The notes under the pieces: model-generated
The model's database searches: none
What the model saw: the letters and a program-made list of their open reading frames with translations, nothing else
Told to the model about the DNA's origin: nothing
Position numbers and translations under genes: made by a program
Shown: positions 32,458-49,664 of the stretch, piece after piece
Layout: every line of letters starts with the position of its first letter
Position numbering within the stretch: position 1 is the stretch's first letter
Assembly: GCA_044352155.1 (NCBI GenBank)
Contig: JBILEK010000005.1
Span: 1 to 61,155, forward strand
Length of the DNA: 61,155 bases
Source: Bdellovibrionia bacterium
GTDB taxonomy: Bacteria > Bdellovibrionota > UBA1018 > JBILEK01
Direction of reading: 5' to 3'

Positions 32458-32499
32458 CTCAAAGTGTGCCATTCCGAAAACAGCCGCATGAGCTTAGAA

Positions 32500-32527
32500 T
32501 CAAGAGAGGATTCTGGCCATCCGATAC
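32500..32527 (+). promoter_or_regulatory. FliA/sigma28-type promoter of secreted peptide 2
   Basis: TCAAG-N15-TCCGATAC, 23 nt before the ATG. Confidence 0.55.
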
Positions 32528-32550
32528 GAGAGACAAGACAGGGAGTAACT

Positions 32551-32813: not shown

Positions 32814-34478
32814 TCAAAAGGACAGCGTAACGCCCGCAGGACGAATGATGTCCAGCAGATTTTGAAACGCGCTCGTCACTTGAAGCGCGATCCTACGGCC
32901 TGCTGACGAATCGACACTCTTCACTTCACCTGAATTACTGTAAGTCACTTTGATCGAGCCAAGCTTTGGATCAATGATCTCAATGGGCTTTGAGTTCTGA
33001 TCGTACTTGAAGTCGATTCTGCGCTTACTCTCGTCAATCATACTCGCGATTCGACCGTTACGATCGTAAATCAACTGCACACCTTTGCCCTTGTCGTTTT
33101 TCGCAAGCGCGAGATTGCCTTTGCTGTCATAGCTGTACTGAAACCAGGCACGTTTTCGATCGAGTTTTGAGAAGCGATCGACTTTAGTAACCTTGCCGTA
33201 CTGTGGATGATAGGCGAGCCGCGTGAGCTCTGAGGGGGTATCTTTTTCGACAACCCGCCCTTTAACGTCATATTTAAACTTGGTCTCATCTGATCCTTTT
33301 TTAATCAAAGTTGGGAGACCGCAGCACTCATTGTAAGTCGTCTCCGTACGATCGCCATCGACGACAGTCACTAGACGGTACTGCCAACTTTCGCCATTGG
33401 GTTTACGCTTCAAAAAGTATTCGTACGATGAGTTGGAAATCGGACGAGAGTCTCGGTTTTTGACTTTCACGCCCACCGTAAAGTGCAGGTCGTCTGCCTT
33501 ATCTTTTTGATACGAGTACTCAGTCAGTGTCCCTTCGCGATCTTTCAGAGACTTGACATTAAGGTCTTGCGCCACTCCATAGTACTCAATCTCCATCGTC
33601 GTTTTGTCCGAGTAGGTGATCTTGCGAAGATTATGATAGTTATCCGTCGAGTACTCGTAGCGATAGACATTTCCGAACGCATCTTTGACTTGCGTAAGCT
33701 CAAGCTGATCGTTGTACTGGTACGTTGCAGTCTTGCCGCCCTCACTCTCAACTTTTTCCAGTAGACCTTTGTTATTCCAACTCAAGAACATCTTGCGCAA
33801 AAAATTATCTTCAAGACTTCGTAGTTTTCCGTCCTTTTGATAGGTGAAATTCAGAAAATTATTGTTACGGTCGGTGATTTTGACAAGCTTTCCGTCCTCA
33901 TCGAAAACTTCAACTTTTCCATTTTCAAATGAGCGCTGATAACCACTCTTTAAACGCGTAATGTATTGATAGCTAAATTTATTCGAAGTGAACTGCGTCC
34001 CTTCGGGCACCTTGCGGCGCTGCAGTTTCCCACTTCGCACGAGCGCCTCCCATTCGCGATTACGCAGAACGGGATCTTCGCGCAGCTGCTTTTGATACTC
34101 CTCGATGCGTGCCGCTCCACTCACTTTGCCCGAAGAGCGCGCCGCATCTACAATCGCCTTTATACCTTGCTCGAAATCGGCCGCGTTGAACTTAACGGGA
34201 GTAAATCGATTCTCGGCACCCCCTCCGTACTCGTATACAGTGATGCTACCGTCAGCAGATACTCGCAAATATACTTCGTACTCAGTACCCCAGCCCCAAC
34301 CAAACATCCCTTTATAGATACTCTTTGAGTTGTACACGCGCTCGATCTTGGGCTCGAAGCCACCAGTATAAACAACGTCGCGATAACCGATAAAAAAGTT
34401 TCCAGTCCGCAAGCTAACGTTAGCCTGCACGCTAGGCAGAATCGACAAGAACGCGCACAAAACAAATAGAGCTCGCAT
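32814..34478 (-). CDS. Secreted YD/RHS-repeat protein, Bd0109-like, no toxin domain
   Basis: Signal peptide, DUF6531-like N-terminus (RVYNS...GMFGWGW), many YD repeats, ends FQNLLDIIRPAGVTLSF without a DPxG core. Confidence 0.85.
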   Translation of the reverse strand: MRALFVLCAFLSILPSVQANVSLRTGNFFIGYRDVVYTGGFEPKIERVYNSKSIYKGMFGWGWGTEYEVYLRVSADGSITVYEYGGGAENRFTPVKFNAADFEQGIKAIVDAARSSGKVSGAARIEEYQKQLREDPVLRNREWEALVRSGKLQRRKVPEGTQFTSNKFSYQYITRLKSGYQRSFENGKVEVFDEDGKLVKITDRNNNFLNFTYQKDGKLRSLEDNFLRKMFLSWNNKGLLEKVESEGGKTATYQYNDQLELTQVKDAFGNVYRYEYSTDNYHNLRKITYSDKTTMEIEYYGVAQDLNVKSLKDREGTLTEYSYQKDKADDLHFTVGVKVKNRDSRPISNSSYEYFLKRKPNGESWQYRLVTVVDGDRTETTYNECCGLPTLIKKGSDETKFKYDVKGRVVEKDTPSELTRLAYHPQYGKVTKVDRFSKLDRKRAWFQYSYDSKGNLALAKNDKGKGVQLIYDRNGRIASMIDESKRRIDFKYDQNSKPIEIIDPKLGSIKVTYSNSGEVKSVDSSAGRRIALQVTSAFQNLLDIIRPAGVTLSF

Positions 34479-34493
34479 GATCTCCCCCAAGTC

Positions 34494-35372
34494 TTAAACG
34501 TCGATCTTAACGACTTTTAGTATGACGAATAGAGCTACAACTTCCAAGAGTAGAACGATCATGAGCAGGATCCAGCCAAACGCAGTTGTAAACAAAGGCT
34601 GCATTAACTCTGGGTCACTTTGCTGCATGAGCAAAAGCATCATGGGTGGCACACCGAGTAAGAACATCCCCTGCATTCGAGCTTGCGCAGTCATGGCCTG
34701 GATCTTTCCTTCGACCTTGATGCGATCGCGGATCGTTAGAACGATGGTGTCAAAAGTCTCAGCCAAGTTTCCGCCGGTTTCTTTGAGGATATTGACAGAA
34801 GTCACAAACATCTCAACATCGTCAGAAACCACACGTTTTGACAGACTCGTCAGACACTCCTCTAATGGGGTGCCCAACTTGTTCTGACTCAAAACCAAGT
34901 TAAACTCCTGCTGGATTGGATTGGGCATCTCAGAGGTTACGAGCCCGAGCGACTGTACCACGCTGAGCCCTGACTTCATGCCGTTGGACATCAGGGATAG
35001 TCCGTCCACCATTTGGTTCACAAACCTTTCAACACGCTTTTGATAAAAGTAATCGACTACGAACTTAGGCACTTTCCAAGCTAATACCGACCATATCGAA
35101 GCTGCCAAAAGACCAATCACATAGTGCGGGAGGATGAGAGTGAAAAAAATGAGTCCTGGTCCCAGAGCAAACATGAGCTGTACGAGCAACACTCGGTGCG
35201 GAGGAACATCAATAAACATGAGCTTAAGTTTATCAACAATGTAGTCACGCGTGCCGACCGACTGGAATCGAAACCAGTCTAAAAACTGTTTATTGTAATG
35301 AAGAGTAAACAAAAAAACTGCAACCCCAATGAGCGCGAGAGCGGCCCAGTAGTAAAGAATTTCCGTCTTCAT
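34494..35372 (-). CDS. tadB: Flp pilus assembly platform protein TadB
   Basis: GMKSGLSVVQSL, ETGGNLAETFD, MTAQARMQ; TMs. Confidence 0.88.
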   Translation of the reverse strand: MKTEILYYWAALALIGVAVFLFTLHYNKQFLDWFRFQSVGTRDYIVDKLKLMFIDVPPHRVLLVQLMFALGPGLIFFTLILPHYVIGLLAASIWSVLAWKVPKFVVDYFYQKRVERFVNQMVDGLSLMSNGMKSGLSVVQSLGLVTSEMPNPIQQEFNLVLSQNKLGTPLEECLTSLSKRVVSDDVEMFVTSVNILKETGGNLAETFDTIVLTIRDRIKVEGKIQAMTAQARMQGMFLLGVPPMMLLLMQQSDPELMQPLFTTAFGWILLMIVLLLEVVALFVILKVVKIDV

Positions 35373-37525
35373 TTGACCGCGAAAAGACCGCGAGAAATCT
35401 TCATCCCCTTGGCCTCCATCTCCTCTACAAATTTCGGAATAAATCCCGTCGGCACGTAGCGACCGATGACTTTGCGATTCTTGTCGAGACCTTCTTGCTT
35501 AAAGTAAAAAATATCCTGAAGCGAAATCACCTCGCCCTGCATGCCGGTGACTTCGCTGATATAAGTCACTTTGCGTGAGCCATCTGAGAGACGACTTTGC
35601 TGAATAATGAGATTCACTGCGCTTGCGATTGTTTCTTTTAATGCTTTCGAGGGTAAGCCCAACCCTGCCATCGTGCACAGAGTCTCAAGTCGCCCAATGC
35701 ATTCGCGTGGATTATTCGAGTGGACGGTGGTCATTGAGCCAGCGTGACCGGTGTTCATGGCTTGAAGCATGTCAATTGCAGCGCCATCACGAATCTCACC
35801 TACAACAATTCGATCCGGTCGCATCCGAAGACAGTTTTTCACAAGATCTCGAATGGAGACTTCACCCTTGCCTTCAATGTTTTTGGGGCGCGCCTCAAGA
35901 CGTACGACATGCTCCTGCACCAGCTGAAGCTCAGCAGAGTCCTCCACAGTAATCACTCGATCCGAGGACGGAATAAAACTCGAGAGTACGTTCAACAGGG
36001 TCGTCTTCCCTGAGCCGGTCCCCCCAGAGACAACGACGTTAAGCTTGCCTTCGACGCAAATACGTAAAAAGTCAGCAATCTCCTCCGTCATCGAGCCCTT
36101 TCCTACAAGGTCTTTATAAGTCAGCCGATGTTTCGGAAATTTTCGAATCGTGATCGTAGGGCCCCGCAGGGCAAGAGGGGGGATAATAATATGCACTCGC
36201 GAGCCATCCGGAAGTCTTGCGTCCACATAGGGAGACGACTCGTTCACTTGACGCCCGAGAGGTGCGACAATCCGGTCAATGATCGTACGCATCTGAGTTT
36301 CGGTCGTAAAAGTTACTTTGGAGAGGGTCGGCTTACCTGACTTCTCAATAAAAATCTGGTCTCTCGCGTTCACCATGATTTCAGTTACCGTATCATCAGA
36401 GAGAAGATCTTCTAGTGGTCCAAAACCAAGCGCCTCATCCAGCACCTCTCTCACGATTTGCTGCTTGAGTTCACGTGTCTGTAAGATGCTACCTGCGTCC
36501 TCAGTCGGGAGAGCTTCAAGGACTGCTTGTTCAGTTTTTTTGTAAATGACTTCGCGCTGCTTGGGATCTGCGGTCTCGAAGTTCATTTTTTTTAGATCAA
36601 GTTTATCTTGAATCGCCGCAAGGAGACGGATCTTAAGCGCAGTCCAAGCATCAACTGATCCCATCCGGCTCCGTCCAAAAGGCGAGCCATCTCCTGATCG
36701 AGCAACCGAACTCTGATCCTGAGCCTTTGCGGCCACATGAGCTGCAACGCCGGTGGGCTTTTTGAGTTGCGCAAGACGCTTTAAGAGGTCCGTCTGCTGC
36801 ATTTTTCGAACAAGATCATTGTACGCCCGCGCCAGTGGAGTGCCCGGGGCAAGAATCGTCAGTGGCGTCGATTTTGAGAGACAGCCATCACAAGTTGAAG
36901 GCTCATCCGGAAGTACGGCGAACACTTCGCGATTAAGATTTTTTTGAATGACTGCAGGATTGTAGAGACTCCCTGCATTAAGTTTGTTGACAATGATCTG
37001 CACCATCTGAGGAGGAAATAATAACTCTTGAATTCGAGCGATCACACGCTTGGTTTGATTCATGACAATCAAATCAGGAGTCGTCACAACAAAAATCGCA
37101 GTCGCATACTCCAGCACACGCATTGTGTGAGAGTCCATTGAGCTTCCGCAGTCGACGACAACGAAATCAAAAATATTTGTAACGCTTTTTAGAAAACGAC
37201 TCAGACCTTCGCCATCAAGATCACTTGCAAGAATTGAATCTCGAGGTGCACCAATGAGGTGATAACCCTGCGGAGCGTTCACCATAAAAGGCGCCAAAGT
37301 TTTTGGATCCATTGGACCCACAGGCAGTTTTGATACATCCACAATACTTCTCTGCGGATTTTGACCCAAGATCAGGTTCTGATCCCCTAAGCTCGTCAGA
37401 TCGAGATCGACAATAAGGGGGCGCTGCTTAAAGTTCTGCATATGCGCGATCGCAAGATTTGCAGCAAAGACGCTCTTACCCACTCCTCCTTTTCCGCCTA
37501 CAACTGCAACGAGATGTCCTGGCAT
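35369..37525 (-). CDS. tadA: TadZ/CpaE-TadA/CpaF fusion ATPase
   Basis: N-terminal MinD-like GGKGGVGKS domain; C-terminal [30 protein letters not shown]. Confidence 0.9.
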
Positions 37526-37528
37526 GGG

Positions 37529-39190
37529 TTACTTCACCTTGACTCGAAAGTTTTTCTTAAGATCGCTCGTGCCTTCGGAGGCATCGGTCACAATTTGTGG
37601 AGTCACAAAAATCACGAACTGACCCTTTTTCTTTTTATAGTTCTTAGAGCGCGTCAGCGTGAACAGAGGTCCTGTGGGTCCTTGAAATGAGCCGGGGTTA
37701 GGCTCATCTTTGTTAAAGTTGGTCAAAACGTCTTGTGAGTTCGCTCCTGCAATGGCGGCACTTTCGAATGACTTCACATACAGAGTAGTGTTGACACGAT
37801 GAAGCGCTCTGATCGGCGTCGATCCACTCTGCCCCACTTGACTGCTCTGCTCGATGTCAGCTTTAAGCTCGATATCATCTGACTGTCCTAAGATCGACGG
37901 AGTGACCGCAAGACTGAGTCCAATGTTCACAGGTGCTCCGGCTTGAACCGTGCCGTTTGCTCCTGCGACCACAGTGGGAAACTCGGTTTGATCATTCACT
38001 TTAGCCGGAAGTCCGCTGCGCACTAGCACTGTCGCTGTCTTAAGGACGCGTGCATAGCCTGCTTGTTGAGCGCTTTGTAGCTTCGGGAACAAACTTGAGA
38101 TCGTTGCAGTAAAAGAGGTTCCGCCGCTTGCGCCAGTACTACCTGCTTCAGTCTGACCTACGGTAAGCGAAGGATCTCCCGTAAAACCTGGCTGCCACTT
38201 AAACCCAAAAAGTCGCTGATAATCTTTTGATAGCTCAACAAAGTGAAAAGTCACACGCACCAGCTTGTCCGCTTTGCGCGGAGGAGCTGGATTAATGACA
38301 ATAAACTGTTGGATCAGATCGCGATTGTTTGCAACATCCACTCGCTCATCGGCACCGAGGAGTTTGGTTGAGGACTTCACATCCGGCAGGTGCAGGCTTG
38401 CTACTTTCATCACACGGGTGAACGCACCACGATCGTCCACTGAGCCTTCGAGCCAAATCTGGCTATTCACCACTCGAGTCGTCACATTGGGTGCAAACGT
38501 GGAGATCTCTTTTTTAATGCGGTCAGAGATGATCTTCAGTGAGACGGGAGACATTTGGACCAAATTTAAAACCAGAGCCTCAGGATTTGCCGGGTCCTCG
38601 TAGGGTCGAACCACTGAAAATAGACGTCGATAATCAGCTGGGACATAGACCTCGCCATCAATGACGATTTTTTTACCGACAGAGCGGATCTTGATTCCTT
38701 CAATATCCTTTAAAAGCTCTCGTAACTCCATCGTGAGGCTATCGAGGTTCGTTCCGTTCACGCGGACATGAACAATCAGCTGCAGGACCCCGTCCTCGTC
38801 GCGCACAGTCACGGTCGTCTCACCTACCGAGAGCCCTCGAAAAACAAGCTGTCGGCGCTCTCCGACTTTTACAAGCGTATAGGAGAGAACCTTGGGATTA
38901 CCAACAGACACTCCGTTTGCGGCCAAGCGTGCGTCAAAGTCGAGGTCGATGACACGATCTTCGCCCACATTCACAATCAGGCGCCGACGATCGGCTGAGC
39001 TCTCGGTGTCGTCGCTTGTCAAGCGTGAGCGCTTGCGCTTAGGTGCTGAGGGATTTGCGCTCTGAGTCCCACCTGAGTACTCCATCGGACCCTCAGCAAA
39101 AGATGTCCGCTCAGTTGAGAGCATGAAGACGACAGTCAGCAGCACAACCATCGCGCTGAGCCTAATCTGATCTGTCTTCATTCGCGACAT
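37529..39190 (-). CDS. rcpA: Tad secretin RcpA/CpaC with BON-like domains
   Basis: Signal peptide, pilus-formation N domain (GETTVTV), C-terminal FVIFVTP; position between cpaB and tadA. Confidence 0.8.
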   Translation of the reverse strand: MSRMKTDQIRLSAMVVLLTVVFMLSTERTSFAEGPMEYSGGTQSANPSAPKRKRSRLTSDDTESSADRRRLIVNVGEDRVIDLDFDARLAANGVSVGNPKVLSYTLVKVGERRQLVFRGLSVGETTVTVRDEDGVLQLIVHVRVNGTNLDSLTMELRELLKDIEGIKIRSVGKKIVIDGEVYVPADYRRLFSVVRPYEDPANPEALVLNLVQMSPVSLKIISDRIKKEISTFAPNVTTRVVNSQIWLEGSVDDRGAFTRVMKVASLHLPDVKSSTKLLGADERVDVANNRDLIQQFIVINPAPPRKADKLVRVTFHFVELSKDYQRLFGFKWQPGFTGDPSLTVGQTEAGSTGASGGTSFTATISSLFPKLQSAQQAGYARVLKTATVLVRSGLPAKVNDQTEFPTVVAGANGTVQAGAPVNIGLSLAVTPSILGQSDDIELKADIEQSSQVGQSGSTPIRALHRVNTTLYVKSFESAAIAGANSQDVLTNFNKDEPNPGSFQGPTGPLFTLTRSKNYKKKKGQFVIFVTPQIVTDASEGTSDLKKNFRVKVK

Positions 39191-39198
39191 CCCTGAGA

Positions 39199-40059
39199 CT
39201 ACCTCGTTTGAGCAGGAGCACGCGGCTGAACTGCGCTCGATCCTGCAACTCCCATTAACTCACCCAGCGAAAGCGGCAAAATTGCTGCCCTTTCGGTATC
39301 GTCATTATTTCTCAAAGCAACCGTGATCTGTGCTCCGGCACTCGAAGTAATCAGACCCAAAGCTTGAGCCTGCCTTGGGTCCACTTCAATCGTAATGGAG
39401 TTAAAACCATCGTACTCAATCAGGGAGCGTGAGCGCAGTTTACGTGAGGCCCCTTCTTGCTCCATGACGCGCGCAACGTTGTTGGTCACGTTACGACCTA
39501 CTGCAAGTACGACAACATCTTGAAAAAGCGTTTGGGAGAACGTCCGCATGCGGTCCTGACCTGGGACAAAGGTCACAATCAGATCAACGCGGTCTCCTGG
39601 CTTCAGAAGCTTACCCACCCCACTGAGCTCATTGACTGGAACTGCGATTGCGCGCTTACCGGGCGCCACCTGTGGAGAGAGCCCAGTACGAATACCGGGT
39701 TCAGAGATCTTGTTGAAGGTAATTTGTTCGCCTTGCTTGATTGGAACCATCGCAATCATGCCCGAGATCTCGCGAAAATCCGAAATATAGACCTCACTCT
39801 CCCCTTTGGGTCGACGCTTTTCGTCCTCCACAACTGTAATAGCTGTCGGCTCCTTGAGCTTGCTGGGGATCGTTTTAATGGTCACAATTTTTTCAGTCAG
39901 GGTCTCCATCTCGTTGATATTTTTGAGCGCAACGAGGACTTGAATCTTTGAGCCGTATCGTTTCTGACTTTCATCCTCCACCGTCGAAACGTAGCTCTGC
40001 ATAAAAAACACAGCCAAAAATGCCATGATCGTCGACATCAAAACGACGTTCTTATTCAT
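39199..40059 (-). CDS. cpaB: Flp pilus assembly protein CpaB/RcpC
   Basis: SAF domain, PGKRAIAVPV, LKPGDRVDLI, VVVLAVG, LRNNDD. Confidence 0.9.
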   Translation of the reverse strand: MNKNVVLMSTIMAFLAVFFMQSYVSTVEDESQKRYGSKIQVLVALKNINEMETLTEKIVTIKTIPSKLKEPTAITVVEDEKRRPKGESEVYISDFREISGMIAMVPIKQGEQITFNKISEPGIRTGLSPQVAPGKRAIAVPVNELSGVGKLLKPGDRVDLIVTFVPGQDRMRTFSQTLFQDVVVLAVGRNVTNNVARVMEQEGASRKLRSRSLIEYDGFNSITIEVDPRQAQALGLITSSAGAQITVALRNNDDTERAAILPLSLGELMGVAGSSAVQPRAPAQTR

Positions 40060-40640
40060 TTCGGGCCTCCCCTACAGTAGCTGATATTCGCAGGCATGTT
40101 CTGACTCGGATTGAGAGTCGTATTTAAAGGCATACAAAGAGTTACTGTGTTGCGTACTCGCACAAAGCTCCGCTCGCGAACAATATCGCGCTGCCCTTCG
40201 GCGTCCTCACCCTCTGCGCGGCCTGCGATACCGCGCTCCACAGAGTTTGCCGTGCCATCTTCTTTGAAAGACTCGAAGTATCCGCCTTTACCTGGCTTAA
40301 TCTTAAAAGTCGCCGCATAAAACACTCGTCCGTCACCCCCTGCCCCCTCACGAGGAGCCTCGTTAGAAGCCACAAGTACCGTCTGATGCTCGAGGTTGGG
40401 TTGCGCTGCTCGACGCACGAGATCCGGGTACTCTGCGCTGTTGTAAGTGAGGAAAAGATTTTGAGCGCGTGCGTACTTTTGATTGACGATCGACATCTGA
40501 ATGACTGTGTTGGTACGCACAAGAAACATCGACATCAAAAGAATGACAGGCAAAACGAAAAGAAACTCCACGACTCCCTGGCCACGACAATCCATCTGAA
40601 ATTTTTTAGGCGTAAAACTCACGCCTCTTCTAGCATCCAT
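40056..40640 (-). CDS. TadE-like pseudopilin
   Basis: RG/QGVVEFLFVLP prepilin cleavage motif; start uncertain. Confidence 0.7.
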   Translation of the reverse strand: MDARRGVSFTPKKFQMDCRGQGVVEFLFVLPVILLMSMFLVRTNTVIQMSIVNQKYARAQNLFLTYNSAEYPDLVRRAAQPNLEHQTVLVASNEAPREGAGGDGRVFYAATFKIKPGKGGYFESFKEDGTANSVERGIAGRAEGEDAEGQRDIVRERSFVRVRNTVTLCMPLNTTLNPSQNMPANISYCRGGPK

Positions 40641-41247
40641 TGTCGTAGTACACCTGTTGCGGAGGTGATCCTCCGCGAGTCTTTACTTTCTCCACACATC
40701 CCGCAGGTCCGCTTGCGGCCCACGGCTCTTCTCTGCCTAACCAAGACTCTGACGTTAATTTGACTTTGGACTCTCCAGTTCGCCGAAGGGACATAAACGT
40801 CAGACTCCCCTTAAAGGTGTATCGGACTCCTTGTTGCCAACTTGAATCGCGATTAGGTCGATCTTGCCCTCGGCCGCTGAGCACGGGCCCTGGTCCAAAT
40901 GCAGCTCCAGTGACGTCTGCTTGGTTTAGACTTCCGTCTCCTTGAATAAACATCTTGAATCGATCTTGCCCTCCGCGCTTGAGCATCGTCTTAAGCACTC
41001 GTGCAGCGGCGGCTTCTTGACTTTCAGCTGAGACACGCGCTGGAAGGAGCGCGCGCGCTGACATGAATGTGGCGTACTGGATATAGCTTCCTACCGCTGA
41101 CACCATCGCCACCTGGAGGTAGAAAAGGAAAAAAGTAAACACCAGTGCCAAGACCAGGACGAACTCGATCGTCGATTGGCCGCTCGAGCGCTTGCGCTTA
41201 CTCTTCACGCGGTTTGAAATAAAAGATCCTGAAATTGCCACTCGCAT
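40630..41247 (-). CDS. TadE-like pseudopilin
   Basis: SG/QSTIEFVLVL and ATFMSARA; ends YDNGC; true start 41247 or GTG 41208. Confidence 0.72.
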   Translation of the reverse strand: MRVAISGSFISNRVKSKRKRSSGQSTIEFVLVLALVFTFFLFYLQVAMVSAVGSYIQYATFMSARALLPARVSAESQEAAAARVLKTMLKRGGQDRFKMFIQGDGSLNQADVTGAAFGPGPVLSGRGQDRPNRDSSWQQGVRYTFKGSLTFMSLRRTGESKVKLTSESWLGREEPWAASGPAGCVEKVKTRGGSPPQQVYYDNGC

Positions 41248-41491
41248 CACTAAAAACGCGGGGATGATACTCGTAATCTGCGCCCCGCTGGCGCGTCCTT
41301 GGATCCCCGAACTGATACGCAGCTCCAAAGGTCTGCTCGTATCCGCCAAAAAATTTATCCGGAAGCCCCCAGGCCTTAATCCCGTTGTAGGTTGCATAAA
41401 AAAAACCAACCACGATCGAAACAAGGAGGATGTACTCGATGATCGATTGACCTGATTCATTGCCAAGAAGCTTCTTGCGCTCTAAAACCAT
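41198..41491 (-). CDS. Flp-like minor pilin
   Basis: NESG/QSIIEYILL; GGAGG RBS before ATG 41491. Confidence 0.75.
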   Translation of the reverse strand: MVLERKKLLGNESGQSIIEYILLVSIVVGFFYATYNGIKAWGLPDKFFGGYEQTFGAAYQFGDPRTRQRGADYEYHPRVFSDASGNFRIFYFKPREE

Positions 41492-42027
41492 GCGGGACCT
41501 CCGAGCGCGCGGATCGGGTCTGCTAGAAACTCCCAAACCGCTGCGATCGCAAGCGGTACGCCGTAGGGCATCTTCAGACTACGATCCCAGCCGGGATCGC
41601 GGATCTTCACCGACGAGAGTCCAATCATGAAAGCCTGAAGTTTAAAAACGGTCTCCGGCAAACGCTTTTTCGCAATCAAGATCCCGAGCGCCAGAATCGC
41701 TCCAAGGACGATCGAGAGCAGCGCAGTATCAAACGCGTATTGAGCTCCACCCCACGCGCCAACCGCAATCAAGAACTTAACGTCCCCTGCACCAAGGTAT
41801 CTCAGCGCATACATCCAGACCAGCGCAAGCCCGCCGATGCATGCACCCCAGAGCGCAAACTTTACGCTCAAGCCAAAAACCGTGTGGTAAACCAATCCCG
41901 CAAGAAACAAAGGCGTAGTAAGCCAGTTATAGATCTTTCCTCGCCGTAAATCCGTCCAGATCGCGACACACGACCCAAAGCCGATTGCACACGCACCGAG
42001 GAGCTCAGTTGGCCCAAATGCTGGCAC
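41482..42027 (-). CDS. cpaA: Prepilin peptidase, A24 family (CpaA/TadV)
   Basis: TDLRRGKIYNW, GAGDVK, MPYGVPLA; GGAGG RBS before GTG 42027. Confidence 0.88.
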   Translation of the reverse strand: MPAFGPTELLGACAIGFGSCVAIWTDLRRGKIYNWLTTPLFLAGLVYHTVFGLSVKFALWGACIGGLALVWMYALRYLGAGDVKFLIAVGAWGGAQYAFDTALLSIVLGAILALGILIAKKRLPETVFKLQAFMIGLSSVKIRDPGWDRSLKMPYGVPLAIAAVWEFLADPIRALGGPAWF

Positions 42028-42220
42028 TGTACCTCCCGGTCTTAAGATTTTGCTCCAGGCGCGCACCGAAGCTCAACATGCCTTTATCCAGAGCAGGCAA
42101 AAGACCCCGCAAAACGGTCGTCGCTAAAATCGTGATGATCGCAAGCAGGAGAATATACTCGGTAATAGCCTGGCCGCGCTCGTTCCTGCGCATGCGAAAA
42201 CTCGATTTGAAAACCCCCAT
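42005..42220 (-). CDS. flp: Flp pilin 2
   Basis: NERG/QAITEYILLL. Confidence 0.8.
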   Translation of the reverse strand: MGVFKSSFRMRRNERGQAITEYILLLAIITILATTVLRGLLPALDKGMLSFGARLEQNLKTGRYSASIWAN

Positions 42221-42265
42221 GAATCCCCCGAAAAGATCGGACGAGGGAGCGAAAAGAAGAAAGAA

Positions 42266-42457
42266 CTACTCTGTCTCGTTTAAGACCGTATCGATTCGAC
42301 CACCGATTTTCTCGGTTGCCCCTGTGATCTTATCGCCGATCCCCTTCTTGAATTTCATCGCGATGATGACCACGACACCCAAAATCAAGATGTACTCAGT
42401 CGTCGACTGCCCGTCCTCTTCGCTCCAAAACTCCCGAATTTTTTTGAGAACGTTCAT
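42266..42457 (-). CDS. flp: Flp pilin 1 (likely major pilin)
   Basis: EEDG/QSTTEYILIL, 63 aa, AAGGAG RBS. Confidence 0.88.
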   Translation of the reverse strand: MNVLKKIREFWSEEDGQSTTEYILILGVVVIIAMKFKKGIGDKITGATEKIGGRIDTVLNETE

Positions 42458-42489
42458 AAACCCTTTGCTCCTTCACCCTAGTCCCTCTC

Positions 42490-42518
42490 TTATCGGCCAA
42501 AGAGAGGCCTAACCTTGA
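42490..42518 (-). promoter_or_regulatory. FliA/sigma28-type promoter of the flp operon
   Basis: Minus strand TCAAG-N16-GCCGATAA, with a perfect sigma28 -10 element. Confidence 0.65.
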
Positions 42519-42586
42519 GCATCACCCTACGTGCGACACTCTATCCCACTTCTAATCCTCCATTGCCTGACAAAATCAGTCAAGCT

Positions 42587-43330
42587 TTATAGATCTTCGA
42601 AATGGATCAATAAAAACGAAGCGTTACTTGTAAACTGAAAAGATTGCATAACCGGCGTCACTCGCTCAAGCCAGTACAGAGGGTCCTCTCCCTGCGCGCA
42701 CCAACGACTGACTTCAAGCTCGAATTGAGGGGGAACACCGCAACTCTGAAGCAAAACAACATCGCCACCCAAGATCCGATGCTCAACAATCTCAGGCTGA
42801 AGATCTCTTGAAGTCCCTAAGCTTGCGAGCGGAACACCAGAGTCAGTTTTAGTAAATGGATCCCGCATCCGACCGAGTGTTCGCGGCTCCATGAGTCGGC
42901 GACTTTGATCCGCTCGGAACAAAACCGCAGAGCACGCGCCGACTTGAGCAAGCGCTAGGGTTTGACCTTCGAGAAAACCTGCAATCGCAGAAGCTCCCCC
43001 TCTCTCATGCACATTTTTACCCGAGTTCAACGCATGCACTTGAGTGTTGGCGTAGAGAAAAGCATTAAAAAGAACATTACCCGCGAGCGTGTAGTAACTC
43101 CTGAGCTCAAACGGAAGAGTCGCTTCCGGGTCTCCCGCCTCACGACTGAGGTACTCTGAGAGACTTTCGCACGCCGTACGCGCGGCACCGCGACCTGCAC
43201 TCGGACCACCAAAGCCGTCCGCTAAAGCAAAAATCCCTCGCTCCTGATGAGAGAGACAGTGATCTTCGAGCGCGGGCATCGCTCCTTGATTCGAAAACAC
43301 GACGACGTGATCTGCTTTAACTTTCCCCAT
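42587..43330 (-). CDS. PP2C-fold protein, degenerate active site
   Basis: ED and ADGFGG retained; GDS, SDG and DN motifs appear as GAC, SCG and SN. Confidence 0.72.
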   Translation of the reverse strand: MGKVKADHVVVFSNQGAMPALEDHCLSHQERGIFALADGFGGPSAGRGAARTACESLSEYLSREAGDPEATLPFELRSYYTLAGNVLFNAFLYANTQVHALNSGKNVHERGGASAIAGFLEGQTLALAQVGACSAVLFRADQSRRLMEPRTLGRMRDPFTKTDSGVPLASLGTSRDLQPEIVEHRILGGDVVLLQSCGVPPQFELEVSRWCAQGEDPLYWLERVTPVMQSFQFTSNASFLLIHFEDL

Positions 43331-43332
43331 AT

Positions 43333-45531
43333 CTACTCCGTTTTCTGCTCCAGGGGCTTAAAGCGCGCGAGCTTCCGAGTAGCACTATCGAAGTACTTGC
43401 TTCCTCGCGGGGCCACTTCAAGTACTTCGTTAAATTTTTTCCGCGCAGTTTCAAAATCACTATAACTCTCTGCAACGACTGCCTCGATAAAAATCAGGCG
43501 CGCTTTCTCAGTGAGAGTCCCACGAATCGAGTTCATGCCGGCGACCGCATCCGCATTGCCAGGCTGTACACCAAGCACTCGCTCGAAGGTCTTGTATGCT
43601 TGCGCGAGCTCGCCTGCATTTTCCTGCGCTTTAGCTTCTGCGAGAAGTGGCTCCACTTTTGATCGAATCTCGGCGCGAATCTCATTGATCCGCGCTTGCG
43701 CTTGGCGAGCTGGACGGGGATCAGGAGCTTCAATCTCTTTGACTTTACCAAAGGCGCTCAACGCAGAAAAAAGCTTCCCGCGCTTACGGAGCAGCATCGC
43801 CGACTGATACGCCTCCCAAGCACTTTTGTTGATCTGCGTAATTGCTAGCTCGTTCTCCGCCTTACGGCGCAAATCTCCTTCGTGTTGCTCGATTTCGGTT
43901 TTCCACTTCGCTACTTCTGCGTTTTCAGGATCAATGGACAGGAGCTCCGGAAACATTGCCTGCGCGTCCTCATACTTTTTAGCAAGCATAAGGACGCGAA
44001 CATCCTCGATCAGCTTCTGAACTTTAAGTCGAAGCGCTTCTTCTCGCTCTTGTTTTTGTTTTTCTTCCAACTGAGCTTGTTGCCGCTTAAGAATGCCGTC
44101 GGCATAACGCTTTAACGCACGAGCGTCTTTGTAGTCATCGACTTTAGCGAAAATCTTATCCAGTTCGTAAACAGACTTCTCATACTCTGCACGCTGGTAA
44201 AGATCTTGTCCGAGCTGATACTGCTGACGAACGTACTGTTGATCCTCGGGTGAAAGATTTTCAAAAAGTTTTTTGCCCTCAGCAGGCTTTGCGCTCTGAA
44301 CAGCAGTGGGTTTACGCTTAGGGGGGGGAGGCAGCTCTTCTTCCTCAGTGAGTTCATAGAGGGCAAGAACGAGAAAAATACCCAAAATCACTTGAGTGCG
44401 TTTTGGGAGTTTTCGTACTTTGCCCAACAAAGAGCGGTCCTCAGGAGCTGGAGCGCCTGCAACTCCAAAAGGGATCGCCCCTGTCCCAAACCCTCCCATC
44501 ACAGGCTGCTGGTGCTGAATGTGCGGCAAGAACTCGGAGACCTGCGGGACCGGAAGCAAGGGCGCCTGCTGCTCAGGCGCGGGAGGAGCATCGAGCACAG
44601 GCAACGACTCCTCTGGCTCAGGGACAGACATAAAGCTCTCTGCGTTTGCGCGATACTCCTCGCTCTCGGCAACAAAACTAAACTCCGTATCCCCAATCTG
44701 AATGACGTCACCACCTGAGAGCTCGTGGCTTTCGATTTTTTGTCCGTTCACAAAAACACCGTTCGAAGAGCCCGCATCTTTCAACAAAAAAGTAGAACCC
44801 ACACGCTGGATGATCGCACTCTTGCGAGAGGCTTTTTTATCGGCAAGAACGATGTCGCAGCTCTTACCACGTCCGATGAGGACTTCTTTGGACTTAAACT
44901 CATAGTCTGTGACGTTTGCGCTGCCTGGCGAAAACCGCAGCCGCACCATGAGCTTTGAAATTGTAGTAACGCGCGTGACACCATCCCCCGCAAGATCCAT
45001 CTCCACCTCTGAGGATGAAGGCTGAGGTAAGTCAGATGCACTCGGCCCTAAATCGAGAGAAACATCCGGAGACTCAGGGAGTGCCCCAACTTCCTCTCCC
45101 TTCTCCTGCGACGTATCAGAGAGCTGGGCCTCAAACGAGGGAAGCTCGGGTAAAGCCTCTACCACTTGGGACTCAGCCACTGGCAAGGCCTCGGGCACAA
45201 CTCCGTCCATAGGAGGCGGAGGCGCGATCGCTTTCGGAGCATCGATGCGCAAAACAAATGGGCCGAGCGCAATTGAGTCACCACTTTTTATCAGCGCGCG
45301 GTCGCAGCCCTGACCGTTGACCACGAGAGATCCGAATTTACTCATTTTCTGAATCTCAGGACTTCCATCCACTAAACGCAAAACAGCATGCCGACGCGAG
45401 ATCGCACGATCATCCAGACGAAGAGCACACTCCTCTCCGCGGCCAATCTCAAACTCACTGTCGCTCACTGGCACTTCACGGAGGAGTGCGCCTTCGCGGT
45501 AAATCGAAAGTATCAGAGGGGCAGCGCTCAT
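43333..45531 (-). CDS. Two-FHA, TM and TPR protein
   Basis: IGRG..SRRH and IGRG..SRKS..SSNG FHA domains, Pro/Glu linkers, TM, TPR-like C-terminus. Confidence 0.85.
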   Translation of the reverse strand: MSAAPLILSIYREGALLREVPVSDSEFEIGRGEECALRLDDRAISRRHAVLRLVDGSPEIQKMSKFGSLVVNGQGCDRALIKSGDSIALGPFVLRIDAPKAIAPPPPMDGVVPEALPVAESQVVEALPELPSFEAQLSDTSQEKGEEVGALPESPDVSLDLGPSASDLPQPSSSEVEMDLAGDGVTRVTTISKLMVRLRFSPGSANVTDYEFKSKEVLIGRGKSCDIVLADKKASRKSAIIQRVGSTFLLKDAGSSNGVFVNGQKIESHELSGGDVIQIGDTEFSFVAESEEYRANAESFMSVPEPEESLPVLDAPPAPEQQAPLLPVPQVSEFLPHIQHQQPVMGGFGTGAIPFGVAGAPAPEDRSLLGKVRKLPKRTQVILGIFLVLALYELTEEEELPPPPKRKPTAVQSAKPAEGKKLFENLSPEDQQYVRQQYQLGQDLYQRAEYEKSVYELDKIFAKVDDYKDARALKRYADGILKRQQAQLEEKQKQEREEALRLKVQKLIEDVRVLMLAKKYEDAQAMFPELLSIDPENAEVAKWKTEIEQHEGDLRRKAENELAITQINKSAWEAYQSAMLLRKRGKLFSALSAFGKVKEIEAPDPRPARQAQARINEIRAEIRSKVEPLLAEAKAQENAGELAQAYKTFERVLGVQPGNADAVAGMNSIRGTLTEKARLIFIEAVVAESYSDFETARKKFNEVLEVAPRGSKYFDSATRKLARFKPLEQKTE

Positions 45532-46571
45532 GACTCACCGACCCCTTCTTTTTTCTCGAGCTTTTGGATCTCTTTGAGCTGCTCTTCGGCTTCGATGACT
45601 TTGGGATCTGAGCTTGAGCCAAAATTCATTCGCAAAACAGCTTGATAGACTCCTTTTGCTTCGCGAAGTCTGCCTGCGGCTTTTGCTTTACGACCTCTCT
45701 CCAACAGACGATCCATCTGTTTATCGATCTCTCTTAAAGCGTTATCACGATACGCTAGCGCCAGAGCGTGCCCTTGATTAGTCAGATCTAGCACGGTGTT
45801 GAACTGGGTGATCGCCCGCAGATAGTTCTCTTCTTGATACTCTCGAAACCCCACCCTAAAAAACATGTCGGCTTTCTTTTTGATATCTTCTGGTAGCTCC
45901 ACATTCGAGTACTGTGCAATGGATCGGACAGCAGGGGCGCCCGCACCTGGTTTTCGCTCGGTTCTTTTGACGTTTTGTTGCTCTTCTTCGAAAAGAAAAG
46001 TCGCACCAAGAACGAGTGCGAGCACGATGAGAATCATGCGGCTCCTGGGATTGCCTAACTGAGTCGATGGGACTGAGACATTCACTCCTGGCAGTCCCTG
46101 TGTGCGCACACCACCCACGGTGGTCATCGCACGCAAGCGCTGTTGATGAACTTGTTGATACTGTTGATCGACGAACACTTGAGTGGAAGTTTTTGCAGGT
46201 GCGGTCAAAACCTGCGTACCAGACTCCGCGGACGCGAACTCGAGTGTCGTCTCGCCGATCGAAAAAATTTCTCCAGAGCGCAGAGGGGTGGCCCGGGTCT
46301 CCTGGCCCTGAAATCGGATTCCATTGGCAGAGCCGAGATCGCGCAGCGCCCAAGGACCGCCACTGCTCGTGCGCGAAAGCTCGCAGTGAAGACGCGATGC
46401 CTTGAGATCCGAGATCATGACATCGGAAGTCTCTCCACGCCCAATCGTGACTTTGTTTGCTCCGATCACAAATACGGCTCCAAGATCCGGTCCGGATACA
46501 ACCTTTAAGCGTGCAAGCTCTCCAGGTTGTTTGGGTACTTTGGCCTGCTTGAATCGGATCGCTCCTCTCAT
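45528..46571 (-). CDS. FHA, TM and TPR protein
   Basis: IGRG..ASRLH..DLGSANG, TM, TPR-like helices. Confidence 0.85.
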   Translation of the reverse strand: MRGAIRFKQAKVPKQPGELARLKVVSGPDLGAVFVIGANKVTIGRGETSDVMISDLKASRLHCELSRTSSGGPWALRDLGSANGIRFQGQETRATPLRSGEIFSIGETTLEFASAESGTQVLTAPAKTSTQVFVDQQYQQVHQQRLRAMTTVGGVRTQGLPGVNVSVPSTQLGNPRSRMILIVLALVLGATFLFEEEQQNVKRTERKPGAGAPAVRSIAQYSNVELPEDIKKKADMFFRVGFREYQEENYLRAITQFNTVLDLTNQGHALALAYRDNALREIDKQMDRLLERGRKAKAAGRLREAKGVYQAVLRMNFGSSSDPKVIEAEEQLKEIQKLEKKEGVGES

Positions 46572-46577
46572 GCTGCA

Positions 46578-48179
46578 TCACCCTTCCTTCCGGGTGCATG
46601 TCATGACGTAAGCAAAACCAGCACTACTCTGGTGCGCAAGCATCTGAATTCGGTAAGCGTCTCCGCTAAAGTCAAAGTCCTCGGTCACGCCCATACCGAT
46701 ACTCGACTCCGCTTTTAAAAAGAGATCATTGACGAAAGAAGAAAACGCCTGATCGCGAGCACTGGCTGAAATCTCTTGACCTAAAGCACTATCAGAGCGA
46801 ATTCCAGAAACTTCTTCAAAAACAGGATTGAGAAACACGACTTTTCTTTGGGCATCTAAAAACATCACACCGAGCTTTGCGACTTCTCCAAGCGGACGCA
46901 GCGAGCGAAAGAGCTCTGCCACTGCGTCCATCTGCACCTCTTGTGAGCTATCGCTTGCACCGCTACGGCTTGCGCGCTGGAGGGCGGAGTTGATTGCATC
47001 TAAGAGCTGATCAAACTCTTCGCGCTTAAAGGATCGCGTCACCTGAGAGGCCTCGCCTTTTAAGACTTTATCGATGTCTTCATTGAGAACTTCAAAGGGT
47101 TTGACGGTCATCCGGAAAAGCACAAAAAAGACAAACGCTCCCACGAGTCCGCTTAAGATCATGGTCTTCGAATAGATCAGTCCGAGCTCCCCAATCTCCG
47201 GAAGCGACGCCTCAAGATCGATCACTACAACGGCTAACCCCACCGGCAACATCTGAGCACGACCTTGATCATAAGCCACAATCGGCTCAACTGCGGCCAC
47301 AGTCTTGTCGTTCACCAGGCGGACACGCCCACGAAACTCCCCGCCTTTTAAGTAAGTGCGCGCTTGAGCGGACGCAAAGAGTGCTGCATCACTTCCGGAA
47401 AACACTTTACCCACTCTCTCCCCAGGAGCTTGGATAGTGAGCTTCATGTCGGTGATCGCTGCGATCACGACTCCGCTTTCATACTCGATGTTGCCGATCG
47501 TGGTTTTTGATCCTTGATTGAGTGCTAATGCAGTTTGGTTGCGCTCAGCGAGCTGTCGAGCAAGCCCAAGCGCTCGCTGACCACTCTCACGGACGATCGT
47601 TGTGCGATTTGCTTGAAGCAGAGGAAACACCGAAATCAGAACGTTTCCGGCCAAAAAAACTAAAACAAGAAGGATCCAGATCGTCTTCCAATCGGTCGAG
47701 AGATTCCAGGAGTAAAACATGGGCATGACATATTTTTCAAATCCCCAGAGTACTTTACCTTTGAGATCCTGCGGAGCGAGCTCGCCCTGATACGACGGAG
47801 CCGAAGGAGTCGGCCCTGGAGCTGAGCTTGGAAAAGGGATGACATTACCAAAGTCCATTCCGACGACTGGAGCTTGACTGAGTTTAGCTTGGACGGCTTT
47901 TTTTAACTCCAACACAAACTCCCCCACGCTGACGCGATCCCCGGGGGAGAGTTTCTTGGTTCGAGTGAGAACTCCGTTTACAAACGTTCCGTTTGCCGAT
48001 CCCTCATCACGCAAGAGAATATCTTCGTTGTTCACAACCAAAACGCAGTGACGGCGCGACACTTTCGACGAAGCGAGCACAATCTCGTTTCCGGGCTGTC
48101 GACCAATTGCAGTCTCCCCGCCCTGAAGCGCATAGCTTGTGCCCCGATTCGGTCCGGCAATGACCATCAGCTTGAACAC
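46578..48179 (-). CDS. FHA, two-TM sensor with HAMP- and PAS-like C-terminus
   Basis: IGRQ..VSRRH..GSANG; TM-periplasmic-TM; HAMP-like; PAS-like GVMFLDAQRKVVFLNPVF. Confidence 0.8.
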   Translation of the reverse strand: MFKLMVIAGPNRGTSYALQGGETAIGRQPGNEIVLASSKVSRRHCVLVVNNEDILLRDEGSANGTFVNGVLTRTKKLSPGDRVSVGEFVLELKKAVQAKLSQAPVVGMDFGNVIPFPSSAPGPTPSAPSYQGELAPQDLKGKVLWGFEKYVMPMFYSWNLSTDWKTIWILLVLVFLAGNVLISVFPLLQANRTTIVRESGQRALGLARQLAERNQTALALNQGSKTTIGNIEYESGVVIAAITDMKLTIQAPGERVGKVFSGSDAALFASAQARTYLKGGEFRGRVRLVNDKTVAAVEPIVAYDQGRAQMLPVGLAVVVIDLEASLPEIGELGLIYSKTMILSGLVGAFVFFVLFRMTVKPFEVLNEDIDKVLKGEASQVTRSFKREEFDQLLDAINSALQRASRSGASDSSQEVQMDAVAELFRSLRPLGEVAKLGVMFLDAQRKVVFLNPVFEEVSGIRSDSALGQEISASARDQAFSSFVNDLFLKAESSIGMGVTEDFDFSGDAYRIQMLAHQSSAGFAYVMTCTRKEG

Positions 48180-48544
48180 AGCAAATCTCCTGGAGTGAGT
48201 CTTTGGCGCTCAAGCGTGCCGGCCGGGAGCTCTAAAGTGTGGTGCGCACTCTGATCCCAAAAAGGAAAAATACTCCAAGGCCGCACTCGAACACGCACCG
48301 AAGTCACTTCAAAACACTTCCGACCGTCCTCACTCTGCGCGTCACGCAGAAAAACGAGATCAATCGGAATCCGCATGAACCACATGTGCACATTGTTGCA
48401 CCGAGGAAACAGAAGTCCCTCGCCCGCATCAAACTGCGCGCGGCCCATCAAGCCTTTGAATCGATTCCAAAAAGACTCCGCCACATGGCACTTTTCGGCG
48501 AGAAGAGCCTGGGTGTTGAGTGTCAGAATTTGAACGCTCCTCAC
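48167..48544 (-). CDS. DUF192 protein
   Basis: RFKGLMGR, VHMWFMRIPIDLVFL, LELPAG. Confidence 0.85.
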   Translation of the reverse strand: MRSVQILTLNTQALLAEKCHVAESFWNRFKGLMGRAQFDAGEGLLFPRCNNVHMWFMRIPIDLVFLRDAQSEDGRKCFEVTSVRVRVRPWSIFPFWDQSAHHTLELPAGTLERQRLTPGDLLCSS

Positions 48545-48605
48545 GACTTTACCCCTCGATTTATTTTATCATATAAAAAGAGTCGGAGACTTTAGGTTTT
48601 CCTTA

Positions 48606-49538
48606 TTAAAAACCAGAAGATGCGCCATCTCCGGATATAAACGAAATGGCCATTGGCCCAAGACTCACAATAATCACGGCTGGCAAAATCAGAATCACCG
48701 TCGCCATGATGAGTTTCGGGGTCGCAGCAGCTCCAGCTTTTTCGGCCATCAGAAACCGATCATTCCGCACTTTCTCGGACTGTGCTTTGAGAGTCTTGCC
48801 GATCGGTGCTCCCATTTGCTCAGCTGAGATCAAAATCGCAATGAACGAGTTGATCTCCGGCATGTTCACTCGAACGCCCATCTCACGAAGCGCGTCGGTT
48901 CGCGAAGCCCCCACTTTGATTTCTTTTAAAACTTGCTCGAGCTCCTCAACCAGAGGGCTTGGGGCTGCTTTCTCGACCACTTTTCCGATTGCTCCTAAAA
49001 AATCTAACCCCGCCTCGGTCGAGAGCGCGAGAAGATCGACGATAAACGGCATCGCCTTACGGATCTGTTTGTGGCGAGCTTCGATGCGTCCTTTTACCCA
49101 AAAATCCGGCCAAAAATAACCTGCCACACCCGAGAGTAGGATCACCGGCAAGCTGAGCTCCAAAACCTCAAGAGACTTTAGCAACCCTCCAACGATCGGG
49201 AAAAATACGATCAAAAATATTTTAAACGCAATAAACTCGTCAGGAGTCAGCTCTTTTTTAAGTCCTGCTGAAATGAGCTTTCTTCGATAAACTTTTCGTC
49301 TCTCATCCCAAGAAGGTTTTCCGCGGACCATCGGAACGACGTATTGAGTAAAAAACGGGCGAGTGAGCTTTACAAGTCCACTGGATGCTGTGCGATCTCC
49401 TGACTCTCCCAGCGCTTCGGCGGCCTCACGCGCCTGAGACTCTTTGAGTATCATGTTCGCCAAAAAAAAGACGCTGAGGCCCAGCATCCCGTAAGCCAAA
49501 TATAGCAGGAGTTGATACTGCTCCATGGATCGAGACAC
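48606..49538 (-). CDS. tadC: Flp pilus assembly platform protein TadC
   Basis: DLLALSTEAGLDF, AEQMGAPI, AEKAG. Confidence 0.88.
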   Translation of the reverse strand: MSRSMEQYQLLLYLAYGMLGLSVFFLANMILKESQAREAAEALGESGDRTASSGLVKLTRPFFTQYVVPMVRGKPSWDERRKVYRRKLISAGLKKELTPDEFIAFKIFLIVFFPIVGGLLKSLEVLELSLPVILLSGVAGYFWPDFWVKGRIEARHKQIRKAMPFIVDLLALSTEAGLDFLGAIGKVVEKAAPSPLVEELEQVLKEIKVGASRTDALREMGVRVNMPEINSFIAILISAEQMGAPIGKTLKAQSEKVRNDRFLMAEKAGAAATPKLIMATVILILPAVIIVSLGPMAISFISGDGASSGF

Positions 49539-49555
49539 TCCTCTCTCTTTGTAGG

Positions 49556-49583
49556 GTATCGGAAAAAAGCAACCGAAGCCTTA
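49556..49583 (-). promoter_or_regulatory. FliA/sigma28-type promoter of tadC
   Basis: Minus strand TAAG-N16-TCCGATAC immediately upstream of the RBS. Confidence 0.55.
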
Positions 49584-49664
49584 CCTCAGGCGCTCACTCA
49601 GATGATAAGATCAAGACTCCAGTCTCAACATGCGTCACGTGGGACACACTTTCGGAGAACCGCG

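Follow-up and report, generated by a model that had tools for sequence, protein, structure and literature searches.

A probable Tad pilus gene array with adjoining tadC, FHA-protein and phosphatase genes in an uncultured member of the Bdellovibrionota

We analyzed a stretch of 61,155 nucleotides (nt) from an uncultured Bdellovibrionia bacterium of the class UBA1018 (contig JBILEK010000005.1 of assembly GCA_044352155.1), hereafter the window, by which we mean this whole stretch. From position 49538 to position 32814 it carries a run of minus-strand open reading frames (ORFs) without interruption, which a first-pass annotation of the sequence had described as 17 co-oriented genes joining a complete Tad pilus to three FHA proteins, a DUF192 protein, a PP2C-fold protein and a YD protein. 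The ORFs, Pfam matches and N-terminal motifs bear this count and content out: 14 of the 17 genes have Pfam matches, and the other three (42005-42220, 41198-41491 and 40056-40640) were read by their pilin-type N-termini, of the Flp/TadE type. Successive genes overlap or are spaced by 2-61 nt, the sole exception being a 129-nt gap at 42458-42586. Across the whole window there are no Rfam matches and no tRNAs, and a sigma-70 promoter and terminator scan of the region gave chance level only.

Gene content of the array

Judged from its sequence, the array is made up of two adjoining units, each with its own upstream motif resembling a sigma-28 (FliA) promoter. The first unit runs from tadC through a DUF192 gene and three genes for FHA proteins to a PPM phosphatase gene; the second runs from three Flp-type pilin genes through tadV, tadE, a tadF-like gene, rcpC, rcpA, a tadZ-tadA fusion and tadB to a gene for a YD-repeat protein. 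In this single array tadC lies upstream of flp at a distance of 6.1 kb. The features, in gene order and with protein lengths in amino acids (aa), are as follows.

49557-49583, minus strand: sigma-28-like motif before tadC, TAAGGCTT-N12-TCCGATA; the -10 core CCGATA is at 49557-49562, about 31 nt before the ATG at 49526
48606-49538, minus strand: tadC, inner-membrane platform protein of the T2SSF family (Pfam T2SSF 57 bits; hydrophobic segments; likely start ATG 49526)
48167-48544, minus strand: DUF192 protein, 125 aa (Pfam DUF192 57.5 bits; weak match to PDB entry 3pjy, E 0.003; conserved after tadC)
46578-48179, minus strand: 533-aa protein with FHA domain (62 bits), transmembrane segment, periplasmic stretch, transmembrane segment and PAS domain; sensor-like, without a kinase domain
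45528-46571, minus strand: 347-aa protein with FHA domain (48.9 bits), transmembrane-like segment (residues 175-198) and TPR
43333-45531, minus strand: 732-aa protein with two FHA stretches, transmembrane segment and TPR (Pfam)
42587-43330, minus strand: PPM/PP2C-family phosphatase, 247 aa (Pfam PP2C 29.1 bits, cut-off 20.3; PP2C_2 27.8 bits, above cut-off)
42490-42518, minus strand: sigma-28-like motif before flp, TCAAGGTT-N13-GCCGATAA, within the 129-nt gap
42266-42457, minus strand: flp1, Flp-type prepilin, 63 aa (Pfam Flp1_like 36.4 bits; G/QSTTEY)
42005-42220, minus strand: flp2, second Flp-type prepilin, 71 aa (motif G/QAITEY; no Pfam match)
41482-42066, minus strand: tadV, A24 prepilin peptidase (Pfam Peptidase_A24 60 bits; GAGD motif; the start may be GTG 42027)
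41198-41491, minus strand: third Flp-motif gene, 97 aa (G/QSIIEY; ORF 41198-41536, ATG 41491; no Pfam match)
40630-41247, minus strand: tadE-like pseudopilin (Pfam TadE 23.0 bits, cut-off 22.9; GQSTIEF at ORF residue 95; the ORF extends to 41466)
40056-40640, minus strand: TadF-like pseudopilin, 194 aa (named solely from an N-terminal GQGVVEF and hydrophobic helix; no Pfam match)
39199-40059, minus strand: rcpC/cpaB (Pfam RcpC 78.5 bits)
37529-39190, minus strand: rcpA/cpaC secretin (Pfam Secretin 49.6 bits, T2SS-T3SS_pil_N 32.4 bits)
35369-37525, minus strand: tadZA, ParA/MinD-like TadZ fused to TadA ATPase in a single ORF, 718 aa (CbiA 45.9 bits, T2SSE 218 bits)
34494-35372, minus strand: tadB, second T2SSF platform protein (Pfam T2SSF 59 bits)
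32814-34490, minus strand: short secreted YD-repeat protein, 558 aa (RHS_repeat 67 bits, DUF6531 45 bits; likely start ATG 34478)

The core Tad parts are all in the cluster with Pfam scores above cut-off, namely the TadA-type ATPase, two T2SSF proteins, RcpA, RcpC, TadZ and the A24 peptidase. TadD, RcpB and TadG were not recognized there, so that the description of the Tad set as complete holds for the core. One scan of species-representative genomes, with a 29-member alignment of the 732-aa FHA-protein family as query and 10-kb flanks, yielded 74 related loci, almost all from metagenome-assembled Bdellovibrionota, and the window's proteins were compared with all ORFs of these loci. In most of them flp2 follows flp1; the third Flp-motif gene, whose product is probably a minor pilin, occupies the equivalent place in 48 of the 74 (tblastn, at least 60 aa aligned), and the TadF-like gene is likewise kept at its place. 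Because the N-terminus of the over-long tadE ORF covers the third Flp-motif gene in another frame, the true tadE start is probably ATG 41247. All 39 complete TadZA orthologues of the related loci are TadZ-TadA fusions, of 713-729 aa, and tadC orthologues at the equivalent place share 49-65% identity.

The YD gene directly follows tadB in 33 of 34 assessable loci, the 34th being a case of overlap in ORF calling. Its product has a signal-peptide-like N-terminus, and its nearest clusters are DUF6531/RHS proteins of 540-563 aa from Bdellovibrionota. Solved Rhs proteins match it over YD-core stretches only. An Rhs toxin was considered for this gene and ruled out by the length of the protein (558 aa, not more than 1000) and the lack of a toxin tail.

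The three FHA proteins were labeled inner-membrane in the first-pass annotation, in agreement with the hydrophobic segments that we find in the 533-aa and 347-aa proteins and with a hydrophobic 17-mer in the 732-aa family. In the 533-aa protein, segments 163-191 and 334-360 flank a stretch of about 140 aa, and the PAS domain is C-terminal; a scan of its family recovered FHA in 57 of 57 members and PAS (PF00989) in 43 of 57. TPR_2 was found in 43 of 59 members of the 347-aa family. The 17-mer of the 732-aa family follows a conserved LPKR, with Lys/Arg before it and Asp/Glu after it in 27 of 29 members; about 30 full-length homologues of this protein were found, at 31-40% identity and all with Bdellovibrionota-type names. 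The 347-aa and 732-aa proteins are paralogues over the FHA domain, membrane segment and TPR (hhalign probability 99.8, E 6e-30). The GR..SR.H..N positions are invariant in the FHA domains of all three families (G26, R27, S41, H44 and N63 in the 533-aa family; G44, R45, S59, R60 and H62 in the 347-aa family), and the invariant Gly-Arg, Ser-Arg-x-His and Asn of FHA domains generally bind phospho-threonine.

The profile of the phosphatase family aligns end to end with solved bacterial PPM phosphatases (2y09, E 4e-18). The acidic residues of the ED, DG, DG and DN motifs of PPM phosphatases belong to the metal site. Among 50 relatives, E22 is kept in 50, D23 in 47 and D38 in 50; position 197 is Asp in 38, and Cys in the window's copy alone, and position 235 is Asp in 30, Glu in 11 and Ser in 4, the window's copy having Ser.

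Related loci and promoter-like motifs

The joint between the two units was judged in the 58 loci with at least 1 kb of sequence after the phosphatase gene, and in 53 of these the phosphatase gene is followed by Flp/Tad genes on the same strand. In the remaining five (L003, L019, L028, L029 and L044) it is followed instead by ABC permeases, aldehyde and 2-oxoglutarate dehydrogenases, or an LRR protein. On the other side, 54 loci had enough upstream DNA, and 45 of these carry tadC, the DUF192 gene and the two FHA genes in the window's order. The tadC-DUF192 joint is altered in the other nine, with tadC not nearby in four (L031, L036, L047 and L051), inverted in three (L009, L013 and L033) and behind an insert in two (L057 and L069), and this joint is thus also unstable. 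All 16 genes of our first listing occur in order in 22 of the 74 loci, the remainder reflecting contig ends, the 10-kb flank or a variant layout. The gene order is not a matter of chance, as dozens of independently assembled genomes repeat it. In the sampled lineages the two halves commonly lie in one piece; the suggestion that this layout is special to the window's genome was not borne out, since a majority of the 74 loci have it, including that of genome FG-1, which we discuss below.

A quick IQ-TREE analysis of the three FHA proteins from 53 loci and the window places the split layout inside joined clades, with two changes among the three split loci included, so that the phosphatase-flp joint was broken at least twice on this tree. 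The window itself is on a long branch, its best identity to the fetched relatives being about 41% over the three FHA proteins. Five loci (L020, L030, L033, L053 and L066), scattered on the same tree (five changes by parsimony), lack tadV in their arrays, echoing the TadV loss reported for Bdellovibrio. We also observed the full Bdellovibrionota-type array in three records titled Lysobacteraceae, Proteobacteria and Pseudomonadota (loci L030, L057 and L064), which are probably mislabeled or mis-binned genomes.

The motifs upstream of tadC and flp resemble the sigma-28 consensus. Of 52 loci, 38 have CCGAT within 150 nt upstream of the tadC start, where 300 shuffles gave a mean of 6.1 and a maximum of 13; the 52 include at least two loci (L051 and L073) whose best tadC match is really tadB. 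For flp, 33 of 55 loci have CCGAT at a distance of 20-100 nt upstream, where shuffles gave a mean of 2.9 and a maximum of 9 (n = 500) and the opposite strand gave four occurrences. With 18 occurrences in the window against 15 expected, CCGATA by itself shows no enrichment, and its position across loci alone is informative. Because the same type of motif stands before tadC and before flp, the array reads as two co-regulated units rather than as a single transcript.

Interpretation of the array and its surroundings

The nearest described system is that of Bdellovibrio bacteriovorus HD100, for which the first-pass annotation had named separate hit/tad and tadC-FHA loci; the published accounts confirm this, with Bd0108-Bd0119 apart from Bd0470-Bd0475. 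The Kil/Tad counterparts in that strain are given as Bd0110-Bd0119, with Bd0470 as the lone TadC (Seef 2021), and the tadB-tadZA-rcpA-rcpC-pilin genes adjoin Bd0109 and Bd0108 while tadC (Bd0470) lies elsewhere (Seef 2021; Tesseur 2026 preprint). The preprint, an analysis of HD100 alone, describes a TadZA fusion, a separate tadC locus, a missing TadV and FHA, TPR and PAS neighbors. Bd0470-Bd0475 are reported as a single operon in which TadC and two genes without stated make-up in that account precede the FHA protein Bd0473, Bd0474 with two cytoplasmic FHA domains and an extracytoplasmic TPR, and the hypothetical protein Bd0475; contact between Bd0473 and Bd0475 is predicted with an ipTM of 0.604 (PMC12034629). 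Bd0109 is an RHS/YD protein co-transcribed with Bd0108 and Bd0110-Bd0111 (Capeness 2013). In both B. bacteriovorus and B. exovorus the promoter of flp1 (TAD operon) is reported to be driven by FliA, and TadV is reported absent from Bdellovibrio and present in Halobacteriovorax and Bacteriovorax, in an account that makes no mention of tadC (Avidan 2017). With regard to function, transposon mutants of Bd0470 fail to attach to prey, Bd0474 mutants attach without prey killing or rounding (Duncan 2019), and Tad depletion leaves transient attachment only (Tesseur 2026 preprint).

The window shares with HD100 the TadZ-TadA fusion and the order flp ... rcpC-rcpA-tadZA-tadB followed by a YD-repeat protein. 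In agreement with the published description of the HD100 operon, its tadC gene is followed by FHA proteins, including one with two FHA domains, a transmembrane segment and TPR, and lastly by a small protein (annotated as hypothetical in HD100); the FliA-type promoter before flp in HD100 has its likeness in the sigma-28-like motif of the window. By published order and make-up, not by alignment, each of the first six genes of the array would have its counterpart in Bd0470-Bd0475 and each of the last eleven in Bd0119-Bd0109, and the YD protein would, by position and family, be the counterpart of Bd0109. In contrast to HD100, where tadC is away from the main tad locus, the two halves are adjacent in the window; TadV, reported missing from Bdellovibrio genomes, is present; and no Bd0108-like small gene follows the YD gene on the same strand.

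Taken together, these data make it probable that in this array an uncultured Bdellovibrionota member encodes its Tad (type IVc) pilus system, the counterpart of HD100 tad locus 1 together with Bd0109 and Bd0470-Bd0475. In such a system TadV would trim the prepilins, and the TadZA motor would act with the TadB/TadC platform to polymerize Flp through RcpC and RcpA. All three FHA membrane proteins keep their phospho-threonine-binding residues; they would place the FHA domains in the cytoplasm and the TPR or sensor-like domains in the periplasm, and could, with the PPM phosphatase, make up a control or scaffold layer on the platform that depends on phospho-threonine and whose kinase would be encoded elsewhere. 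By extension from B. bacteriovorus genetics, the biological role may be lasting prey attachment and later steps. The split layout of HD100 would be a rearranged state. We propose, more tentatively and at somewhat less than even odds, that the FHA proteins and the phosphatase are old, integral Tad parts, forming a phospho-threonine-switched inner-membrane and periplasmic scaffold on TadB/TadC that couples prey contact to pilus action, and that the dispersal of the B. bacteriovorus genes and the loss of TadV are late rearrangements of a one-locus, two-promoter ancestor.

Several points weigh against this interpretation. The window's organism is uncultured, and the predatory role is carried over from B. 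bacteriovorus genetics. The match to Bd0470-Bd0475 and to the Kil system of Myxococcus follows published descriptions rather than alignments: B. bacteriovorus, Halobacteriovorax, Bradymonas and Myxococcus were all absent from the results of the scan of species representatives, the 2xFHA-TPR family used as a search profile recovered only members already known and no named cultured relative, and among the 120 of 402 matches listed in the profile search with the phosphatase family none was from cultured Bdellovibrio or Myxococcus. Since the scan finds only genomes whose 732-aa gene matches two peptide patterns, the 53 of 58 loci with the joint are not a phylum-wide rate. Both sigma-28-like motifs are consensus matches and mark putative promoters. 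No Ser/Thr kinase was seen anywhere in the window, and its phosphatase copy may be weak or inactive, two Asp of most relatives being replaced.

Among alternative readings, an ordinary Tad pilus that serves adhesion to surfaces or biofilm formation, with no role in predation in this organism, is the one to be taken most seriously, although we hold it to be unlikely. Adhesion and surface sensing are the Tad role in most bacteria, according to a review and the Tesseur 2026 preprint; the organism has not been cultured, and its window yielded no gene specific to predation; and two relatives with related loci, FG-1 and FG-2, are known only from genomes of sorted magnetotactic cells, their predatory lifestyle being itself deduced (PMC13200544). 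On the other hand, the B. bacteriovorus system that is required for predation has been described with the same traits, namely a TadZ-TadA fusion, a YD protein at the end and a tadC-FHA-PPM module, and all three are conserved across the loci. A more remote reading, which we consider improbable, treats the unit from tadC to the phosphatase as an independent signaling operon that happens to lie beside the pilus operon, its FHA proteins and phosphatase acting on a target other than the pilus. The separate promoter-like motifs of the two units would fit this, as would the breaks in the phosphatase-flp joint (5 of 58), the loci in which tadC is detached, inverted or displaced (9 of 54) and the reported binding of Bd0474 to Bd0075, which is encoded far from the tad genes in HD100 (PMC12034629). 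Yet the unit is headed in 45 of 54 loci by tadC, an essential pilus platform gene, the motifs before the two units are of the same kind, the Bd0474 mutant is blocked in predation after attachment (Duncan 2019), and FHA genes in Myxococcus also lie beside the tadC counterpart, kilH.

That the contiguity is an assembly artefact joining two loci at 42458-42586 is scarcely credible. The window contains no N, there are no repeats at the joint, and G+C content shows no step there, only a dip in the intergenic and pilin stretch; since, in addition, the same joint recurs in 53 of 58 independently assembled genomes, the misassembly that the first-pass annotation named as a possible refutation is not the case. 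The same annotation regarded the array as direct evidence of one prey attachment and sensing machine. Because the adjacency is conserved and the promoter motif is of the same kind before both units, these features support a functional link, arguing, if indirectly, that the tadC-FHA-phosphatase unit works with the pilus. The claim of directness falls, as the array consists of two units, the phosphatase-flp joint is lost in 5 of 58 loci and the tadC-DUF192 joint is changed in 9 of 54.

In current work on B. bacteriovorus the Tad system is called "genetically dispersed", the separate tadC locus with the FHA, TPR and PAS genes near it is counted as an oddity, and the question is raised whether the signaling proteins neighboring tadC belong to the pilus (Tesseur 2026 preprint); the comparison of loci argues that they do. 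It also names candidate parts, namely the PPM phosphatase as the last gene of its unit, two paralogous FHA-transmembrane-TPR proteins, an FHA-PAS sensor-like protein and a third Flp-motif gene.

On the plus strand, two tandem genes for small secreted proteins (32133-32438 and 32452-32751, likely ATGs 32206 and 32552) converge on the YD gene; their products are 33% identical to each other with a common ...QGRSA C-terminus, and in the second gene CCGATA precedes the ATG by 31 nt. The pair lies where HD100 has the small disordered Bd0108, but on the opposite strand, a likeness by position alone. At the other end of the array, a gene for a secreted protein of no known family (49512-50405, plus strand, likely start near 49665) points away from tadC, with ABC permease genes after it; it keeps this divergent position in 34 of 44 loci. 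A second secretin gene (496 aa) directly precedes a gene for a short TadA/VirB11-like ATPase (315 aa) at 4453-6875 on the plus strand, a pair resembling the duplicated rcpA2-tadA2 module, "tad locus 2", of HD100 (Tesseur 2026 preprint). Elsewhere, the window encodes an orphan ParA/MinD-like ATPase of 392 aa (24442-25620, plus strand) whose neighboring genes belong to no known family, three sigma-54-dependent activators together with a single sensor histidine kinase (1454-2569, 18340-21824 and 59913-61037), and a methylcitrate-cycle set, prpD-prpB-prpC, at 54288-57829.

Comparison with FG-1, Kil and canonical Tad systems

The array is not a new kind of system, and its layout is partly drawn in print for FG-1. 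FG-1 and FG-2 (our loci L016 and L013) belong to the class UBA1018, described as the sister of Bacteriovoracia, and the system of FG-1, the synteny of which is drawn in Figure 6 of that study, is called Kil, as in HD100 (PMC13200544). In the FG-1 locus the 16 genes of our first listing are all present and ordered as in the window, with 36-69% identity for the individual proteins; FG-1 is nonetheless a separate species, with an identity of about 40% or less over the three FHA proteins. We found no explicit published account of the tadC-FHA adjacency, which the figures or supplements of PMC13200544 and Avidan 2017 may show.

The first-pass annotation described the Kil system of Myxococcus as an FHA-containing Tad system that mediates contact-dependent prey killing. 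The FHA link proved sound: the Kil clusters are rich in FHA proteins and include the FHA-TPR protein KilD, an ATPase fused to FHA (KilF) and, next to kilH, two FHA genes (Seef 2021). The M. xanthus clusters (MXAN_3102-3108 and MXAN_4648-4661) resemble the array in being Tad-derived, with many FHA and FHA-TPR proteins, and in having two FHA genes directly beside the tadC counterpart, as the window's FHA genes are by tadC, a likeness of make-up and position only. A feature search likewise ranked Myxococcota FHA/TPR clusters just behind those of Bdellovibrionota (scores 0.93-0.96), which we treat as a lead only. The systems differ in that the N-terminus of the KilF ATPase is FHA and that of the window's ATPase is TadZ (ParA/CbiA-like), and the Kil gene lists that we draw on include a YWTD protein but not PP2C, DUF192 or YD proteins. 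Kil is also described as assembling at prey contact sites, unlike the Tad system of HD100, which is pre-placed at the pole (Tesseur 2026 preprint).

The ATPases offer a further comparison. An exhaustive TadZA search returned 6714 representatives at E of at most 1e-30; of the best 150 taken, 141 were scanned against Pfam, a TadZ-like half being present in 61, and 148 were kept in a FastTree phylogeny of the ATPase domain. The TadA phylogeny, of the kind suggested in the first-pass annotation, places the window in a supported TadZ-fused set, with the FHA-fused form as a separate group (27 rows, 3 changes), on a tree that is unrooted and labeled by domain make-up without taxa. Median ATPase-domain identity to the window is similar for the two fusion types (57.8% for TadZ and 56.6% for FHA); the TadZ-fused and FHA-fused ATPases are close kin at similar distance, which says little on kinship to Kil.

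Compared with the canonical Tad/Cpa systems of Aggregatibacter and Caulobacter, the window has Flp, TadV, TadE/F, RcpC, RcpA, TadZ, TadA, TadB and TadC, and its cluster does not include TadD, RcpB and TadG. It differs further in the fusion of TadZ and TadA, in the YD protein that comes last in the operon, and in the position of tadC, which stands upstream in a separate unit with the FHA and PPM genes.

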